64,000 bases of DNA, taken from an uncultured Verrucomicrobiae bacterium. Lineage in GTDB: Bacteria > Verrucomicrobiota > Verrucomicrobiia > Chthoniobacterales > JAFAMB01. Location: positions 128,001-192,000 of the forward strand of contig CAWEXO010000013.1 of NCBI GenBank assembly GCA_963813025.1, in the 5' to 3' direction. A program made the position numbers and the translations under genes. Shown here in pieces: positions 1 through 7,551 of this stretch. Below the pieces are notes generated by a model. The model was not told where the DNA came from and did no database searches. It saw only the letters and a list, made by a program, of their open reading frames with translations. How positions within the stretch are numbered: the first letter of the stretch is position 1; each line of letters opens with the position of its first letter.

Positions 1-1140
1 CAAAGCGGCCAGCTGAGTCGGCACTGAGCCGATCCTCGTCGGCTGTATCCCGTTGGCATCCACCAAACAGGGAACCTCCACACAGCAACCGGCGGGCAGA
101 TTATCAATCAGACCGTCATTTGGCACATTACCGTTGATGCGCGTGGGCTTGTTCGTCTCGATCGCTTCCATGATGTATGAGCCGTACTCATGACTGCGGG
201 CCGTGGCAAGTTCCGCGGAACTGATTGAGGCAAATTCCTGATCGAACCGCTGTTGCCTTTCGTAACAATGCCTCAGGTATCCTCCCGTGCGCCCAAAATC
301 GAACCATCCGTCCGATCTGTTTTTGAATTTCGGAACCAGATCCTCGGCGATCATCTTCTCCGATTTCCGAAAATACGGTCCGTACTCGCTGGCGTGTCCG
401 CTGGATTCGGTGACAAAATAGCCGAAGTGTTTCATCAATTCGATCCGAACGGGCTCAGCACCATAAATGTCCGGATTCTCAATAGCCTGCCAGATCTTCG
501 GATAGAGGTCTTCTTTGCCGCGTCGAAACTCCAGGAAGAAAGACTGATGGTTGATACCGGCGCAAAGGAAAGAAACCTCCTCATAGGGGACTTGTGCCCA
601 AGAAGCCAGCATCTCGCTCGTGCCTTGCACGCTGTGGCAGAGGCCGACATGCGGTTGCCCGGTTCCGGCGTCGATCGCCCAGCAGTTAGCCGCCATAGGA
701 TTGACGTAGTTGAGCAGCAACGCTTCCGGAGCCTGTTTGGACAGATCGAGCGCCAGATTGCTAAACACCGGGATGGAGCGGAGGGCTCGGAAAACGCCGC
801 CTGGGCCGAGGGTGTCGCCGACGCACTGCCCTACGCCATACTTCTGGGGAATCTCGATATCAGTCCTGTAGGCAGCCAAGCCGCCTTGCTGAAAGGTAGT
901 AATGACGTAATCCGCGCCTTTGACGGCTTCGCGTTGCTCCTGGGTAGCCACTAGCTGAGCCGAAGTGTGCAGTTGATCGATTTGCGATTGAACGATCTGA
1001 CGGGATTGTTCCAATCGCTGGGCGTCCACATCCATCAAGGCAATCGTGCTATCTTGCAGGCTCGACGTCAGCAGGATGTCGTTACATAGCCTTTGGGTAA
1101 ACACGAGACTGCCGGAACCAACAAAAGTAATCTTCGGCAT
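1..1140 (-). CDS. melA: Family 4 glycoside hydrolase (alpha-galactosidase MelA-like), 3' end runs off the window
   Basis: Manual translation, not in the ORF track: MPKITFVGSGSLVF... NAD-binding start, GDTLGPGGVFRALR, SHEYGSYIMEAIET...GNVPNDGLIDNLP..CCVEVPCLVDANGI. Confidence 0.9.
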   Translation of the reverse strand, partial: MPKITFVGSGSLVFTQRLCNDILLTSSLQDSTIALMDVDAQRLEQSRQIVQSQIDQLHTSAQLVATQEQREAVKGADYVITTFQQGGLAAYRTDIEIPQKYGVGQCVGDTLGPGGVFRALRSIPVFSNLALDLSKQAPEALLLNYVNPMAANCWAIDAGTGQPHVGLCHSVQGTSEMLASWAQVPYEEVSFLCAGINHQSFFLEFRRGKEDLYPKIWQAIENPDIYGAEPVRIELMKHFGYFVTESSGHASEYGPYFRKSEKMIAEDLVPKFKNRSDGWFDFGRTGGYLRHCYERQQRFDQEFASISSAELATARSHEYGSYIMEAIETNKPTRINGNVPNDGLIDNLPAGCCVEVPCLVDANGIQPTRIGSVPTQLAAL

Positions 1141-1266
1141 GGGGTTGGAATTGGATTAATCGCGAATCCCGTTCTGGCCGCAACGGCTTTTTCCGAACTT
1201 TTCTGTTTTTTACTCCACGATCGGTTCTTGTCGCCGGGGAAGGCTCGCATTACGTTCGCGGCTTCC

Positions 1267-2532
1267 ATGAAAGAACTGAGCACGCGCGAGTTGTTCGCAG
1301 AATACGTCGTTCCGAGCTACGGCCGTTACGAAACTGTATTCACACATGGTCAGGGCGCTCGAGTCTGGGACGAGGATGGCAAGGAATACCTCGACTTTGG
1401 CGCCGGCATCGCCGTCTCTATCCTTGGTCACAATCATCCGGCGATCGTGTCGGCGATCGAGCGACAGGCTCGTACCTTGATCCACACCTCAAACCTCTAT
1501 TATACCCGTCCGCAAGGGGAGCTGGCCCAGCGGCTGATCGAACTGGTCGAAGTGCCTGGCAAAATCTTCTTTTCGAATAGTGGCGCGGAGGCCAACGAAG
1601 CGGCGATCAAGCTTGCGCGCAGATTCGGAAGCGTCACGGCAGGAAACAAGTCGGACTCGTCGCGTTACGAGATACTTACCTTTGAAGGGTCTTTCCATGG
1701 CCGGACGATGGCCGGCATTTCGGCTACGGCACAAACCAAGGTCAAAACGGGTTTTGGCCCTCTCCTGACCGGCTTTCGTCATCTGCCTTTTAATGATTTG
1801 GCGGCAGTAGAGCAGGCCATTTCCGCGGAAACCGTCGGCGTCCTTCTGGAAGCAGTTCAGGGAGAAGGCGGCATCCATCCGGCGCGCGCCGAGTTTTTGC
1901 GAGGTCTGCGCCGGCTCTGTGATGAGCGCGGACTCCTGCTGATGTTCGACGAAATTCAATGTGGCATGGGACGGCTGGGAAATTTTTGCGGCTGGAAGAC
2001 GATTGCACCCGACGTGGTTCCCGATTGCGTCAGCTGGGCGAAAGGTATTGGCGGCGGCTTTCCGCTGGGCGCAACCTGGATCAGAAAGACGCCGGTGCGT
2101 TCGAACCCGGAAAATGTTCTCTGCGATCTTCTTGGCCCGGGCTCGCACGGAACAACTTACGGGGGCGCACCGCTGGCGTGTGCGGTATCGTTGGCCGTCC
2201 TCTCAACGATTGAGCGAGAAAAATTGTTGACGCGAGCAAGTGACCTTGGTCGGCGCCTGATACTACAGTTGACTGGTTTGCCTGGCGTACGCGAAGTTCG
2301 TGGATTGGGTTTGATGCTTGGGATCGATTTGGACGGAGCGCCGCCACCGGCGGGGGCTGAGAGCATTGCGCAAACGGTGGTGAAACGCCTGATGAAAGAC
2401 GGTCTGCTGACCGTTCCGGCTGGCTCGGCGGTCATCCGGCTCCTGCCCCCTCTGAATGTCACCGACACGGAGGTCGATCGCGCTCTGGCGATTCTCGCGC
2501 GCACCCTGGGAAACCCTTTGCGGCCTGACTGA
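1267..2532 (+). CDS. argD: Acetylornithine aminotransferase
   Basis: YLDFGAGIAV, FSNSGAEANEAAIK, SFHGRT, DEIQCGMGR, AKGIGGG; start set at ATG 1267; adjacent to argF. Confidence 0.92.
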   Translation: MKELSTRELFAEYVVPSYGRYETVFTHGQGARVWDEDGKEYLDFGAGIAVSILGHNHPAIVSAIERQARTLIHTSNLYYTRPQGELAQRLIELVEVPGKIFFSNSGAEANEAAIKLARRFGSVTAGNKSDSSRYEILTFEGSFHGRTMAGISATAQTKVKTGFGPLLTGFRHLPFNDLAAVEQAISAETVGVLLEAVQGEGGIHPARAEFLRGLRRLCDERGLLLMFDEIQCGMGRLGNFCGWKTIAPDVVPDCVSWAKGIGGGFPLGATWIRKTPVRSNPENVLCDLLGPGSHGTTYGGAPLACAVSLAVLSTIEREKLLTRASDLGRRLILQLTGLPGVREVRGLGLMLGIDLDGAPPPAGAESIAQTVVKRLMKDGLLTVPAGSAVIRLLPPLNVTDTEVDRALAILARTLGNPLRPD

Positions 2533-2538
2533 CTGAGC

Positions 2539-3438
2539 GTGAAGCATTTTCTTTCGATCGAACAGTTGAGTCGAGAGGAGCTCCTGGCACTCCTCAGTTC
2601 GACCGGCCACTTCAAGGCAAGTCGCGGGAAGAACACTCAGCGCCCACTTGCGGAAACGACGTGGGCGCTTCTTTTCAGCAAGCCATCGACGCGGACCAGG
2701 GTAAGCTTCGAGACGGGGCTCCGCGAGCTTGGCGCCGGCGTGATGTTCCTTTCCCAGAACGACATTCAATTGGGCCGCGGCGAACCAATCATCGACACTG
2801 CGCGTGTTCTGGGCAGGCTGGTGCAAGGCGCGGTGATCCGGACGTTCGATCAGAAAGACCTTGAAATTTTCGCCCGGCATAGCGGCATTCCGACAATCAA
2901 TGCGCTCACCGATGACGAGCATCCCTGTCAGATCGTGGCTGATCTGTTCACCATTCTGGAGAAACGCGGGACCCTGGATGGCTTGAAAGTGTGCTTTGTC
3001 GGAGACGGCGATTGCAACGTAGCGCGTTCTTGGATCTGGGCGGCCGAGCGAATTGGGTTCGAACTGCGGATTGCCGCTCCCCAAGATTACCAGCCGCCGC
3101 GCGCATTTCGGGACCGGCTAACTAGTGCAGCGATCCAGTTCTTCACCGATCCAGCTGCCGCCGCCGAGGGCGCTTCCGTGCTCTACACGGATGTGTGGGT
3201 GAGTATGGGTAAAGAGTTAGAAGGTGCGAAGCGGCTTGCGGATCTCGCCAACTTTCAAATAAACCGCAGTCTGCTCGAGCGCGCCGATCGAGATGTTCTC
3301 GTGCTGCATTGTTTACCGGCTTATCGAGGAAAGGAAATCACCGAAGAAGTTCTGGAAGCGCACGCCCAAACAATCTTTGATCAGGCGGAAAACCGGCTGC
3401 ACGCGCAGAAAGCGATCGTGGTTGCCTGCACTGGGTGA
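2539..3438 (+). CDS. argF: Ornithine carbamoyltransferase
   Basis: STRTR, HPCQ, YTDVWVSMG, HCLP, QAENRLH motifs. Confidence 0.96.
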   Translation: MKHFLSIEQLSREELLALLSSTGHFKASRGKNTQRPLAETTWALLFSKPSTRTRVSFETGLRELGAGVMFLSQNDIQLGRGEPIIDTARVLGRLVQGAVIRTFDQKDLEIFARHSGIPTINALTDDEHPCQIVADLFTILEKRGTLDGLKVCFVGDGDCNVARSWIWAAERIGFELRIAAPQDYQPPRAFRDRLTSAAIQFFTDPAAAAEGASVLYTDVWVSMGKELEGAKRLADLANFQINRSLLERADRDVLVLHCLPAYRGKEITEEVLEAHAQTIFDQAENRLHAQKAIVVACTG

Positions 3439-3474: not shown

Positions 3475-3626
3475 TAGAGATTTCTCGGAGTGTCTTTGGC
3501 CCTGTGCTGGTAGGGCGAGAACTCGTTTGAGCCTTCGGCGAAGACTTGTTCGAGCCGGACGCAGGAGTTGCCACGTCCAACACCCGGCTCAAACAAGTTC
3601 TCGCTTGGCGCTCGAATGAATTTTCG
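3475..3626. repeat. Left part of a palindromic REP/MITE-like element (GGTAGGGCG family), interrupted by IS110; remainder at 5312-5357
   Basis: GGTAGGGCGAGAACTCGTTTGAGC (3509-3532) pairs with the reconstructed GCTCGAATGAATTTTCG|CCCTACC; inner inverted repeat ACTTGTTCGAGCCGG / CCGGCTCAAACAAGT; related half copy at 39122-39213. Confidence 0.75.
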
Positions 3627-3637
3627 TATAGCAAGTC

Positions 3638-3960
3638 CGGAGTTATTCAGCAAGCTGTGGTCGGAGGCCCTACCGGTCGGAGCTCCAGCTTGTGAATAAC
3701 TCCGCCCGGAGAAAAGAAAGCTTTGGAAAAAAGAAAGGGTTTTCTTTGCCAAGGGCAGTCGGGCAAAATCCCCCGCTGCCCACGCGAAGAAGGACGCGCC
3801 GGCTGGCTACGAATAGGATTTTCGGGTCCGCGAGATCTTTAGGGCAGAGTTTCGAGCCAGCCGGTCGCGCTTTGATTCGTCACAACGAATACTCTAGTTG
3901 AGGTCGAGCACTTCACACTTCGACGACTTAACTATACGGATTTCGGACGGCCAAAGCCAA
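3638..3960 (+). ncRNA. Predicted IS110 bridge RNA (5' hairpins, target-binding loop, donor-binding loop)
   Basis: Stems 3638-3657/3686-3704, 3753-3758/3776-3781, 3799-3808/3855-3864, TAGTTGAG-GTCGA/TCGAC-CTTAACTA; loop segments match the target flanks and IS ends; RNA boundaries inferred. Confidence 0.75.
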
Positions 3961-4004
3961 GCGGCTTTTTTCGCGCTGGGTAAAACCAGAAAAAAGGAGC
4001 AAGC

Positions 4005-5279
4005 ATGAACCGATCAAATCCGTTTCCGGTCCCAGATCCCCATTATATGGTCAGCGTGGGAATCGATTGGGCTGATAAAGAACACGCTGTCTGTCAACGC
4101 TCTGGTCCGGAGGGAGGATGCCGGACATTCCAGCTGGGCGCCGATCCCGTTTCGGTTCGGACCTGGCTCGAAGAGCTCAAAAGCTTGGCTGGTCCGCAGG
4201 GGCGGGTGGCCATTGGTTTTGAACAAAATCGGGGAGCACTCTTTGAAATGCTTCGCACCCAGGGAGACTGGATCGACCTCTATCCGCTCAATCCTTTGAG
4301 TTTAAGCGAATACCGCAAGGTCTTCTTTACTAGTGGCGCCAAGGATGACCCCCTCGACAGCCAATTGATCGAAGAGCTCGTTGATCACCATCGGGATCGG
4401 CTCCGGCTTTATCAACCCCCGGAGCCGGTAGTGCGGGAACTGGATTTGCTCGGTCAGCACCGACGCAAAGCCGTCGAGGCCTCCGTGGTGTGCGAAAACC
4501 AACTCACCAGCTTACTCAAAGTCTACTATCCGCTGGCCCTGGAGGTCCTCGACGATCTGGACACGACCCTGGCACTACATTTTTTGAAACGCTGGCCGAC
4601 CCTGCAGAGTTTAAAAAAAGCCAAGTCCCAGACCCTGCGCTCCTTTTTCTATCAACACCACAGCCGGAGCCAAAGCTTGATTGAGGAGCGGCTGGAAAAG
4701 ATCGCTCGGGCCCAAACCGTCACCGAGGATCGTTCTCTGCTGGAGCCCTCCGTGCTGAGTTGCAAGTGTTTGGTCAGTCAATTGTTGCCGCTGCGAGATT
4801 CCATCAAGGCTTTTGACAAAGCCATCCACACTCTGTTTGCCAAACATCCCGATCGGCACATTTTTGAAAGTCTGCCCGGAGCCGGCCCGCAATTAGCCCC
4901 GCGCTTGTTGGTGGCTTTTGGCTCCAATCGGCAGGCTTTTGCCCAAGCCCTGGAGGTACAGAAAAAAAGCGGAATCGCTCCGGTCCAAGTGCGCAGCGGC
5001 CAAACCAAAAGCGTCCAGCGGCGGCGCTTTCGCTCCAAATTCCTGTGCCAGAGCTTCCACGAATTCGCGGCTCATTCCATTCCTTATTCCCAATGGGCCA
5101 AGCTCTATTATCAAGAGCAAATGGCCCGCGGTAAGTCCCACCACACTGCCGTGCGCGCCTTGGCCTTTAAATGGATCCGCGTCATCTTCCGGCTCTGGCA
5201 GGACCGCACCCCTTATGACGAAGAGCGCTACCTCCAAGTCCTCAAAAAACGCCACTCACCAATCGGTGAAAAACTTTAA
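4005..5279 (+). CDS. IS110-family recombinase/transposase
   Basis: RuvC-like GIDW..GFEQ..KDDPLD (DEDD); C-terminal SLPGAG, SGIAPVQVRSG (catalytic Ser motif), ALAFKWIRVIF. Confidence 0.96.
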   Translation: MNRSNPFPVPDPHYMVSVGIDWADKEHAVCQRSGPEGGCRTFQLGADPVSVRTWLEELKSLAGPQGRVAIGFEQNRGALFEMLRTQGDWIDLYPLNPLSLSEYRKVFFTSGAKDDPLDSQLIEELVDHHRDRLRLYQPPEPVVRELDLLGQHRRKAVEASVVCENQLTSLLKVYYPLALEVLDDLDTTLALHFLKRWPTLQSLKKAKSQTLRSFFYQHHSRSQSLIEERLEKIARAQTVTEDRSLLEPSVLSCKCLVSQLLPLRDSIKAFDKAIHTLFAKHPDRHIFESLPGAGPQLAPRLLVAFGSNRQAFAQALEVQKKSGIAPVQVRSGQTKSVQRRRFRSKFLCQSFHEFAAHSIPYSQWAKLYYQEQMARGKSHHTAVRALAFKWIRVIFRLWQDRTPYDEERYLQVLKKRHSPIGEKL

Positions 5280-5288
5280 CTTTTTCCC

Positions 5289-5294
5289 TTGCCA
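5289..5294 (+). promoter_or_regulatory. Outward-facing -35 (TTGCCA) in the IS110 right end; forms TTGCCA-N17-TATAGC with 3627-3632 on circularisation
   Basis: Spacing counted on the reconstructed junction ...CTCAGATACTG-TATAGC. Confidence 0.6.
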
Positions 5295-5466
5295 GACCTG
5301 CTCAGATACTGCCCTACCGACCCAAGTCCATAGATTACGTTGCGAGACAGCTTCTGAATTTTCGTCCTCCCAGTCGTGGACCAGCAGACCTTCCATCGGC
5401 CTTTTCTCTTTGGTTGCAAAAGAGCCGGGGGTCCGCCACTAGTTGTACCTTTATTTATCAAAATTT

Positions 5467-7551
5467 ATGATTTTGCCCTCCTTGGCGGTGTCCTTCTTAT
5501 ACAAAACGGGTGTTTGGATAGCCCTTCTTTGTGCGCTCCTCGGGTTAGGCGCCGCTTATGGAGTGATTCGGTTTATCCTGTTCCAATCGCCCGGCAACGA
5601 GCGGATGCGCCAGATCGCCAGTGCGATTGAGGAGGGGGCCAAAGCGTATCTGAACCGCCAGATCCGAACCATCAGCGGTATTGCCGTCGTAATTTTCATC
5701 ATACTGATTTTTGCCAAAGATTGGTTCACCGCTTGCGGCTTTTTGATTGGTGCGGCCTGCTCGATGGCGGCGGGTTACATCGGGATGCGCGTGGCCGTCA
5801 TCACGAATTGCCGAACGGCGCAAGCCGCCAGCCGATCGAAGCAAAGCGCGTTGCGCGTCGCCTTCAATGGTGGCGCAGTAACCGGGTTGCTCGTCGTTGC
5901 TCTGGCGCTTCTTTCCGTCGGATTGTTTTTCCTAGTGGGTCAAGCGGCTTTCGGGAAGGAGCACGCCGTCAATAGCCTCGTCGGACTTGCCCTTGGCGCG
6001 AGTTTGATCAGCGTTTTCGCGCGTCTGGGAGGCGGTATTTACACCAAGGCAGCCGACGTCGGGGCCGACCTTGTCGGCAAGATCGAGTGCAACCTCGAAG
6101 AGGACGATCCGCGAAACCCAGCCACGATTGCGGACAATGTCGGGGACAATGTCGGAGACTGCGCGGGAATGGCCGCCGACGTTTTTGAAACCTACGCTGT
6201 CAGTATAATCGGAGCGATCCTGGTTGGGCTGCTGACGCTGCCGAATACGCCGGAAGCGGTGATTTACCCGTTTCTCTTAGGCGGGATTTCCGTCATTGGG
6301 GCCGTTCTGGGGATTCTCTACGTTAATTTCCGTCAAGCAACTCCGACTCAGGTACTCATTGAGGCGGTTTGTGCCAGCGGGTTGGTTTCGGCAATTCTTT
6401 ACTGGCCGGCGACAATGTGGCTCTTCCCGCACACGCTTCGGGCAGGAGACAAGGTCTACGAGCCCCACGAGCTCTACTTCGCTGCTTTGGTTGGACTGGC
6501 GATGACTGGCATCATCGTCGGCATTACTAACTACTACACTTCCACTTCCTTCAATCCGGTCCGCAAGATTGCCCGAGCCTCCGAGACTGGCCACGCGACC
6601 AACATTATCGCTGGCCTGGCGATCGGCCAGCATGCGACGGCTCTTCCTGTACTCTTCATTGGGTTGGCTATCATGCTGAGTTATTTTCTTGGCGGCCTGT
6701 ATGGTATTGCGGTGGCCGTTATGAGCATGCTCTCGATGGCGGGGATTATCATCTCGCTGGACGCATTTGGACCAATCACCGACAACGCGGGGGGTGTTGC
6801 CGTGATGAGTGATTTACCAAAGGAAACGCGAACCATCACGGACGCCCTGGACGCCGTTGGCAATACGATGAAAGCGGTGACCAAGGGGTACGCCATTGCC
6901 TCGGCGGGGTTGGCGGCGCTAGTCCTGTTTGGTTCCTATGTCGCTGAGTTACGCACTCATTTCGCCGGCACCGGCACCCACCAATTGGCGCCGAATGAAT
7001 TCTCGTTGGAGCGGCCCGAGATCATCATCGGGCTGTTTTTCGGGGGATTGCTGCCCTTTTTGTTCACCGCTTTTAGTATGGATGCGGTGGGGAAGGCGGC
7101 TGGAGCCGTGGTTAAAGAGGTGCGCCGCCAGCTGAAAGTGAAACCTGGTATCCTGAACGGAACAGAGTCACCGGAATACGGTGCCTGCGTTGATATTGTA
7201 ACACGGGCTGCCCTCCACGAAATGATTGTGCCGGCGCTATTGCCGGTCGTCTTCGTGATCGTGGCGAGCTGCTTCGGCCACGTGGTTCTAGGCGGGATGC
7301 TGGTCGGCACGATCGTCACCGGCCTGTTTGTGGCGATCTCCATGACCTCGAGTGGCGGAGCCTGGGACAATGCAAAGAAGTTCATCGAAGAAGGCAACTA
7401 CGGAGGAAAAGGCTCGCCGGCGCATCAGGCCGCGGTGACCGGCGATACGGTCGGCGATCCTTACAAGGATACCGCCGGCCCCGCTATTAACCCGATGATC
7501 AAGGTCGCGAACATTCTGGCAATTCTCATCGTTCCGATTATTTTTCGCTAA
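5467..7551 (+). CDS. hppA: Membrane-bound H+-translocating pyrophosphatase, K+-independent type
   Basis: [48 protein letters not shown] (Lys marks the K+-independent type), [11 protein letters not shown]. Confidence 0.95.

Follow-up and report, generated by a model that had tools for sequence, protein, structure and literature searches.

An IS110-group insertion sequence of an uncultured Verrucomicrobiae bacterium with a probable IS621-type bridge RNA and a modestly variant crossover

The stretch analyzed here is a 64,000-nt window of contig CAWEXO010000013.1 from the genome (16 contigs) of an uncultured Verrucomicrobiae bacterium; all coordinates are positions in this window, on the plus strand. 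Positions 3627-5311 are occupied by a 1,685-bp insertion sequence (IS) of the IS110 group that consists of a 378-nt left end (3627-4004), a recombinase coding sequence (CDS, 4005-5279) and a 32-nt right end (5280-5311). As argued below, the left end very probably encodes a bridge RNA of the type found in Escherichia coli IS621 (Durrant et al. 2024, PMC11208160; Hiraizumi et al. 2024, PMC11208158). It is thus a known kind of system, described in 2024, with a modest variant at the crossover. The features of the locus are as follows.

3560-3626, plus strand: left flank, a copy of a repetitive extragenic palindromic (REP)-like repeat that ends in the left target half-site GAATTTTCG (3618-3626)
3627-5311, plus strand: IS110-group insertion sequence, one of 10 full copies with the same ends
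3627-3632, plus strand: putative right donor half-site TATAG; TATAGC is also a -10-like hexamer
3636-3703, plus strand: long near-perfect hairpin of the left end in the minimum-free-energy fold, upstream of the guide loops
3798-3957, plus strand: predicted two-loop guide RNA core (covariance model), upstream of the recombinase gene and identical in 10 of 10 copies
3798-3865, plus strand: predicted target-binding loop module, with outer stem 3798-3808/3855-3865, inner stem CGAA 3810-3813/TTCG 3851-3854 and hairpin GGTC 3825-3828/GATC 3834-3837
3816-3824, plus strand: putative left target guide GGATTTTCG
3840-3847, plus strand: putative right target guide TAGGGC (3840-3845), complementary to G+CCCTA, followed by AG (3846-3847)
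3869-3957, plus strand: predicted donor-binding loop module, with stems 3869-3875/3951-3957 and 3878-3881/3946-3949 and inner stem CGAA 3886-3889/TTCG 3942-3945
3889-3893, plus strand: ATACT segment, singled out in the initial annotation of this DNA
3892-3900, plus strand: probable left donor guide CTCTAGTTG in the register of the family, to be compared with CTCAGATA at 5301-5308
3932-3939, plus strand: putative right donor guide CTATAC (3932-3937), which would pair with G+TATAG at the element start, followed by GG (3938-3939)
4005-5279, plus strand: IS110-family DEDD/serine recombinase, 424 aa
5289-5294, plus strand: -35-like TTGCCA, 17 nt before TATAGC (3627-3632) once the right end is joined to the left end
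5301-5311, plus strand: putative left donor half-site CTCAGATA (5301-5308), then CTG, with G5311 as the sole base shared with the target
5312-5318, plus strand: right target half-site CCCTACC, where the interrupted repeat resumes

The 10 full copies are 98.5-100% identical, because of which the lineage is evidently active, to judge by sequence; a 212-nt left-end fragment is also present. As the initial annotation would require, the other copies have the same ends and flanks with the same motif (10 of 10). The left junction reads [A/G]AATTTTCG^TATAGCAAG (TTTTCG^TATAG, ^ marking the junction) in all 11 instances, i.e., in the 10 copies and the fragment, and the right junction reads CTCAGATACTG^CCCTACC (ATACTG^CCCTACC) in nine of the 10 copies. 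In the copy on contig C4 an A replaces the last G of the right junction, and in that on contig C16 the right end is one base short. G5311 is interchangeable with G3626, so that one G can be assigned to either side of the element. All 10 copies are inserted at the same base of the REP-like repeat, in the motif RAATTTTCG^CCCTACC, with no longer target duplication. The left flank starts with GAA in five copies and with AAA in four, and reads GAAATTTTCG, with an extra A, in the C4 copy; the CCCTA of the right flank is kept in all 10. The target consensus GRATTTTC proposed initially therefore has to be corrected to RAATTTTCG^CCCTA, with R first and A second, as seen in the copies and in the unoccupied sites.

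More than 50 further places in the genome match the stretch that forms the left flank, and these matches stop at position 3626. The uninterrupted site, [AG]AATTTTCGCCCTA, is found in 132 unoccupied copies. Metagenome contigs running along the left flank also continue with CCCTACC directly after 3626, though the run may come from the source sample of the genome and is not independent. Many unoccupied repeats contain two intact modules ~50 nt apart. At our locus a second GAATTTTCG is located at 5356-5364, 45 nt past the element; since it is followed by TCCTCCC and not by CCCTACC, it represents a second, degenerate target module. Immediately before the left flank (3510-3560), the module occurs once more in an inverted, diverged form.

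The 424-aa product of the CDS has the N-terminal DEDD RuvC-like domain PF01548 (DEDD_Tnp_IS110; E 1.8e-20, profile positions 1-155 of 155) and the C-terminal domain PF02371 (Transposase_20; E 1.2e-8), and it scores 148.9 bits against a cut-off of 140 with the NCBIfam model NF033542, "IS110 family RNA-guided transposase". Its C-terminal half gives weak but specific matches to the structurally solved transposases of ISCro4 (9t56, E 1.5e-6) and IS621 (8wt6, E 7.1e-6), with RSG at residues 330-332 aligned with ESG of 9t56. The motif positions D21, E73, D115, D118 and S331 are those that we take, by analogy to IS621, to be catalytic. The corresponding set named for IS621 is D11/E60/D102/D105/S241 (PMC11208158). 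By homology, the product of 4005-5279 is a member of a family with demonstrated RNA guidance (PMC11208160, PMC11208158).

The left end is predicted to be highly structured: the minimum-free-energy fold of 3627-4004 has an energy of -152 kcal/mol (z = -4.58). Both loops of the guide core are built alike, with an outer stem, the same CGAA/TTCG inner stem and a small central hairpin. The stems that had been recognized initially were recovered, namely CCGGCTGGCT (3799-3808) with AGCCAGCCGG (3855-3864) and the GGTC/GATC hairpin in the target loop, and GCTTTG (3869-3874), CGTC (3878-3881), GACG (3946-3949) and CAAAGC (3952-3957) in the donor loop; the first of these extends to 3798/3865 through a G.U pair. 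The arms of the upstream hairpin at 3636-3703 are conserved in related loci L032 and L033 with a different loop, and two more hairpins follow at approximately 3713-3781.

A covariance model, R1, was built from the RNA of the element and two relatives with 69% identity, which is one of the checks called for at the outset. It recovered a full-length two-loop RNA on the same strand, directly upstream of the recombinase gene, in 17 of the 24 loci searched in a genome collection (E 7.8e-42 to 0.066), with protein identities down to ~37%. Out of 80 metagenome loci fetched, 42 were searched with R1 and 38 of them matched (E <= 0.01), 37 over the full length and one, L062, partially at a contig start. 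Not searched with R1 were L069, L074 and L075, which come without a 5' region, and the more distant L096, L101, L102 and L104-L135. L031 and L037 were left out because they duplicate L032 and L035, and L045, L049, L050 and L051 (32-35% identity, Firmicutes-like and others), whose R1 matches were partial or weak, were excluded from all counts.

An initial alignment of three close sequences was too similar and yielded no compensatory pairs. With 15 non-redundant sequences, standard pairs were found in 95.3% of pair cells against 69.4% in shuffles, and 33 of 42 pairs showed a compensatory change on both sides, in an alignment that was fitted to the model and hence is biased towards structure. The covariation score was 0.507 against 0.135 in shuffles, none of 500 shuffles reaching it, and when partners were slid by 1-3 columns as a control, pairing fell to 26-43%. 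The outer stems are nearly wholly different in sequence between relatives, yet still paired, and the inner stem of the donor loop changes to CGGA/TCCG in L046 and CGCA/TGCG in L036. While the stems covary, the loop strands are unpaired in the consensus. The IS621-type target-loop/donor-loop layout initially proposed thus agrees both with the published layout and with a fold that covaries in relatives.

We have also looked for a terminator. A hairpin noticed by eye, AAAGCC-AAGC-GGCTTT followed by T (3953-3972), failed the rule of the scan and is not claimed; RNAalifold pairs 3783-3797 with 3960-3975 instead, and no plus-strand terminator was called in the scan of the integrated copy.

The target loop can be read against the DNA on both sides of the element. 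Its 5' strand, GGATTTTCG, matches the left flank GAATTTTCG at eight of nine positions, as had been noted; the odd base is a G opposite a bottom-strand T, and the first G of the guide would likewise tolerate the A or G found among the 10 flanks. The 3' strand, TAGGGCAG (3840-3847), is the exact reverse complement of the right junction CTGCCCTA (5309-5316). In the donor loop, CTATACG (3932-3938) matches the left junction at 7/7, as the reverse complement of CGTATAG (3625-3631). Both matches correspond to what the initial annotation had reported. Their significance was assessed with 20,000 dinucleotide-preserving shuffles of 3798-3957, with matches allowed anywhere in the RNA. The 8/8 match to the right junction was reached in 62 shuffles, the 7/7 match to the left junction in 228, and the 8/9 match to the left flank, a T-rich string whose low complexity makes such matches frequent, in 1,528. 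The three together were obtained in none.

We then turned to related loci, in which the left junction was found from the donor loop alone, as the reverse complement of its 3' strand, and the right junction from the conserved right-end motif. Of the 52 RNAs parsed, 46 had a left end matched at 7/7 by the reverse complement of the donor-loop 3' segment, with enough flank for scoring. At these 46 loci, the left target guide scored 8 over its positions 1-8 in 15 cases, 7 in 21, 6 in four and 4 or less in six. When collapsed into 29 distinct guide classes, cognate guide-flank combinations had a mean score of 6.38 and non-cognate ones 3.39, and the observed sum was reached in 0 of 50,000 permutations; for the right target guide (12 loci) the corresponding values were 4.17/5 and 2.11/5, with 0 of 20,000 permutations, the loci in both cases sharing ancestry, so that these counts overstate independence and are not true probabilities. 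The clade to which the element belongs provides an example: its right flank is constantly CCCTACC, and the left guide occurs in five forms, each at its own left flank. Guides GGATTTTC, AGGTTTTC and CAGGTTTTC are found at flanks GAATTTTC, AGGTTTTC and CAGGTTTTC, respectively, and guides GGAGCCTC and GGAGTCTC at GGAGC(C/T)TC and GGAGGCTC, respectively. The covariation of target-loop strands with flanks that was to be expected from the initial annotation is therefore seen in relatives. Because the stems covary and the target-loop strands track the flanks, the RNA-guide reading has comparative support, not just that of one match.

A separate observation concerns L067, which has an RNA of the same clade, flanks unrelated to its guides on both sides, and a recombinase match limited to residues 7-332, which suggests a rearranged locus or an off-target insertion.

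The left donor guide is the part of the RNA for which we arrive at a different assignment. In relatives, the strand just after CGAA-T is CCTCAGATG, identical to the right end CCTCAGATG-TCT, and the variable triplet changes in step on both sides (ATG; GTG in L034 and L080; GGC in L038; ATC in L081). With wobbles and one bulged RNA base allowed, 24 of the 26 distinct guide/end pairs of relatives reach 8/8 in this register, and in L086 and L078 the match extends to position 8. In our element, it corresponds to 3892-3900 against 5301-5308, with 7/8 pairs, a bulged U3895, a mismatch at 3898/5306 and a wobble at 3900/5308. Position 5306 is T in the clade consensus of the right end and A in our element.

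The alternative within the same bridge RNA is that ATACT (3889-3893) acts as the 5' donor guide by pairing next to the crossover with the right end at 5306-5310, as initially annotated. The identity itself holds (5/5 here, and 4/5 in five guide/end pairs of the clade), and this register abuts the crossover as the left donor guide of IS621 does (PMC11208160). The same 5-mer match, however, recurs in 2,154 of 20,000 shuffles (10.8%), which is not significant alone, and pairing would require that the conserved CGAA/TTCG stem lose its last pair. The ATACT register scores no more than 3/5 in any of the remaining 20 distinct pairs of relatives, where the 3892-3900 register reaches 8/8 with matching variable triplets. 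The base A5306, in place of the T of the clade, accounts both for the weaker family register of our element and for the fifth base of the ATACT match. We thus consider a guide role of ATACT unlikely and the match probably coincidental; 3892-3900 is the more probable left donor guide. Of the four guide assignments made initially, this one appears to be wrong.

Two explanations dispense with guides altogether. The structured left end could be a leader that controls recombinase expression, the protein recognizing the ends and the target by itself, so that matches between loops and flanks would be repeats at the DNA level. The region does lie directly upstream of a strong Shine-Dalgarno sequence and start codon. 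Yet the flanks are host DNA outside the element, and the loop strands nevertheless change with them across the 29 guide classes; moreover, it is the stems that covary while the loop strands stay unpaired, and RNA guidance is demonstrated for the protein family. We regard a pure leader function as very improbable. That the matches between loops and flanks are due to chance is less credible still and can practically be discarded: the low complexity of the left-flank string, matched at 8/9 in 7.6% of shuffles, is what speaks for it, and the absence of the three joint matches from all shuffles as well as the permutation results for both target guides speak against it.

Several observations nevertheless weigh against a bridge RNA. 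In addition to the shared ancestry of the loci and the model-fitted alignment mentioned above, the 10 copies do not differ in their RNA, which leaves the genome without covariation of its own. A search of Rfam returned only four matches at chance level (E 0.065-0.95), all far under gathering scores. At six of the 46 loci the left flank is matched poorly: L034, L095 and L080 match 7-8 consecutive bases only in a register shifted by 2 nt, and L038, L044 and L067 simply match badly. The left donor guide of our element is, as described, imperfect in the family register. The promoter scan of the integrated copy found no sigma-70-like promoter on the plus strand. Finally, the sole public run that contains the sequence consists of DNA metagenome contigs; no joints were present there, and this material is uninformative on the circle junction.

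The crossover deserves separate consideration. In IS621, positions 8-9 form a CT core that is identical in donor and target and is paired by all four guides, and the top strand is cut after position 9 (PMC11208158). Here, the dinucleotide differs between donor and target, and not all four guides pair with it. The 132 unoccupied sites show the target to be CG and the right junctions show the donor to be TG, which confirms the single shared G of the initial annotation. Our element and 14 related loci of the clade combine a CG left junction with a TG right junction, and 23 other loci have CT at both.

The guides can be read accordingly. The left target guide carries CG, as do the core-binding bases of the right donor guide. 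The right target guide has C and then A-G, pairing donor G, T and C rather than target G, C and T; it thus places an A opposite position 8, and the left donor guide stops short of the core. The bases AG (3846-3847) pair donor C-T (5309-5310) and not target T-C, and GG (3938-3939) pairs C8 (G:C) and T7 (wobble) on the target-derived side of the left junction. As a result, both 3' strands are fully complementary to the recombined junctions. In IS621, handshake guides are the two bases 3' of the right guides, which pair positions 6-7 of the other DNA after the exchange (PMC11208158), and the handshake role initially suggested for AG and GG fits this definition. Of 42 loci, 40 have CG/TG, CT/CT or TT/AT junctions, L034 and L080 being those with TT and AT. 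In these 40, the core bases of the right donor guide complement the pair at the left junction and those of the right target guide the pair at the right junction. L038 fits at its left junction alone, and the right side of L076 is mis-anchored. Position 9 of the left target guide is G, G, A, T and A in the five classes of the clade; since the guide base varies while the target keeps G, pairing at this position is evidently not required, as far as the sequences tell.

A 2-nt staggered double-strand exchange would be expected to leave a mismatch at position 8, replication of which would yield, along with the pattern observed, its reciprocal, i.e., TG at the left and CG at the right junction. The reciprocal pattern is absent from all 10 copies and from all 14 related loci. 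The junction pattern would fit a 1-nt overlap or a top-strand-only transfer, and the latter would agree with the single-strand excision reported for IS621 (preprint 10.64898/2026.08.31.748434). We tentatively propose, as a possibility we place somewhat short of probable, that this is a natural bridge-recombinase lineage for which a single base shared by donor and target suffices (G9, instead of the near-invariant T), with a 1-nt overlap or a top-strand-only transfer; position 8 would be read crosswise by the 3' guides, amounting to a built-in three-base handshake that favors insertion. The sublineage of L034, L080 and L095 has a TT left junction and an AT right junction, with the left guide match 2 nt further from the element; L034 and L080 may represent a second case of unequal cores. 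In a limited search of the literature that did not extend to the supplementary tables of PMC11208160, we found no description of a natural bridge element whose donor and target cores differ. To judge from the sequences, the departure from the IS621 core rule appears to be real and modest.

Taken together, these data suggest the following scenario. The element would be excised as a circle, after which a complex of recombinase and RNA would pair its target loop with a copy of the repeat and its donor loop with the circle junction, and strands would be exchanged at the single shared G. The expected partners are the target RAATTTTCGCCCTA (RAATTTTCGCCCTACC) and the circle-junction donor CTCAGATACTG-TATAG. 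At position 8, where the target has C and the donor T, A3846 would fit donor T and G3938 target C; since each fits the opposite DNA, both 3' guides would gain pairs only after top-strand exchange. Position 8 would then act as an extra handshake position and not as a shared core base.

A promoter at the circle junction has been described for IS110 elements (PMC11208158, PMC11208160). In our element, a promoter consisting of TTGCCA, a 17-nt spacer and TATAGC is predicted, which would form only in the circular form. In relatives, TTGnnn 16-18 nt before the junction and a TATAGN-like hexamer after it are present in 31 of 32 distinct right-end/left-end pairs; nine of these have TTGACA, and the left ends start with TATAGT, TATAGG, TATAGC or TATTGT.

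Several further observations were made on the copies and their surroundings. The 10 copies fall into two subfamilies (three and seven copies) that differ at ~25 positions clustered in the CDS (4253-4703), 20 of them within 4541-4703; the region 3774-4252, including the whole bridge RNA, is invariant. In two full copies (C13:92671 and C11:77963), which belong to different CDS subfamilies, and in the fragment (C1:207984), the first 13 bp are tandemly duplicated (TATAGCAAGTCCG twice) and preceded by a normal left flank. Possibly, a circle was inserted at a left end already present, and the two copies then recombined. The solo 212-nt fragment (C1:207772-207984) ends within the target-loop hairpin. 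At the locus in the window, the element lies in an intergenic repeat between open reading frames (ORFs, 1093-3438 and 5443-7551) that by eye resemble an acetylornithine-type aminotransferase, ornithine carbamoyltransferase and a membrane proton-pumping pyrophosphatase.

Bridge recombinases are under development as programmable tools for DNA rearrangement, and design rules for IS621 and IS622 require identical donor and target core dinucleotides, CT or GT (10.1101/2025.05.14.653916). The natural G9 and the position-8 mismatch suggest that the core requirement can be relaxed or re-set, and with the element one can examine, in a natural system, how direction is determined by handshake pairing and the choice of strand. 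The guide reading also explains the restriction to one repeat family and predicts 132 further landing sites. In other respects, the element is an ordinary member of its kind.

Compared with IS621, the element shares the DEDD and serine recombinase, an RNA in a long left end, and two predicted internal loops. In IS621, the 5' strand of each loop has the sequence of the left half-site (top strand; PMC11208160), and the 3' strand complements the right half-site; our element would follow this layout, though imperfectly at its probable left donor guide. Putative handshake bases located 3' of both right guides and insertion in repetitive extragenic repeats are further likenesses, and a circle-junction promoter is predicted as in IS621. 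Unlike in IS621, where CT is shared, the target has CG and the donor TG, position 9 being G; the left target guide varies at this position, and the left donor guide ends before the crossover in our element and in many relatives. Similarity to the IS621 protein is detectable only over the C-terminal domain (E 7.1e-6).

Relatives of the same family with a CT core are found in Planctomycetota, Acidobacteriota and other metagenome-assembled genomes (L034-L046 and L076-L103; 32-45% protein identity). Their RNA has the same architecture, each loop with a CGAA/TTCG inner stem, and they also have in common with our element the right end CTCAGATGTCT, a left end starting with TATAG or TATTG and the predicted junction promoter (TTGACA), but carry CT at both junctions (23 loci), and in the model alignment the target-loop 3' strand of our clade is one base longer than theirs. 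The seekRNA/bridge RNA elements of the IS1111 group are likewise RNA-guided members of the IS110 family, but have their RNA in a long right end and longer subterminal inverted repeats (PMC11208160), as opposed to the 378-nt left and 32-nt right ends found here. Finally, ISPpu9 and ISPpu10 of Pseudomonas putida, likened here by their published description only, are IS110-family elements that also insert into identical copies of a repetitive intergenic sequence.

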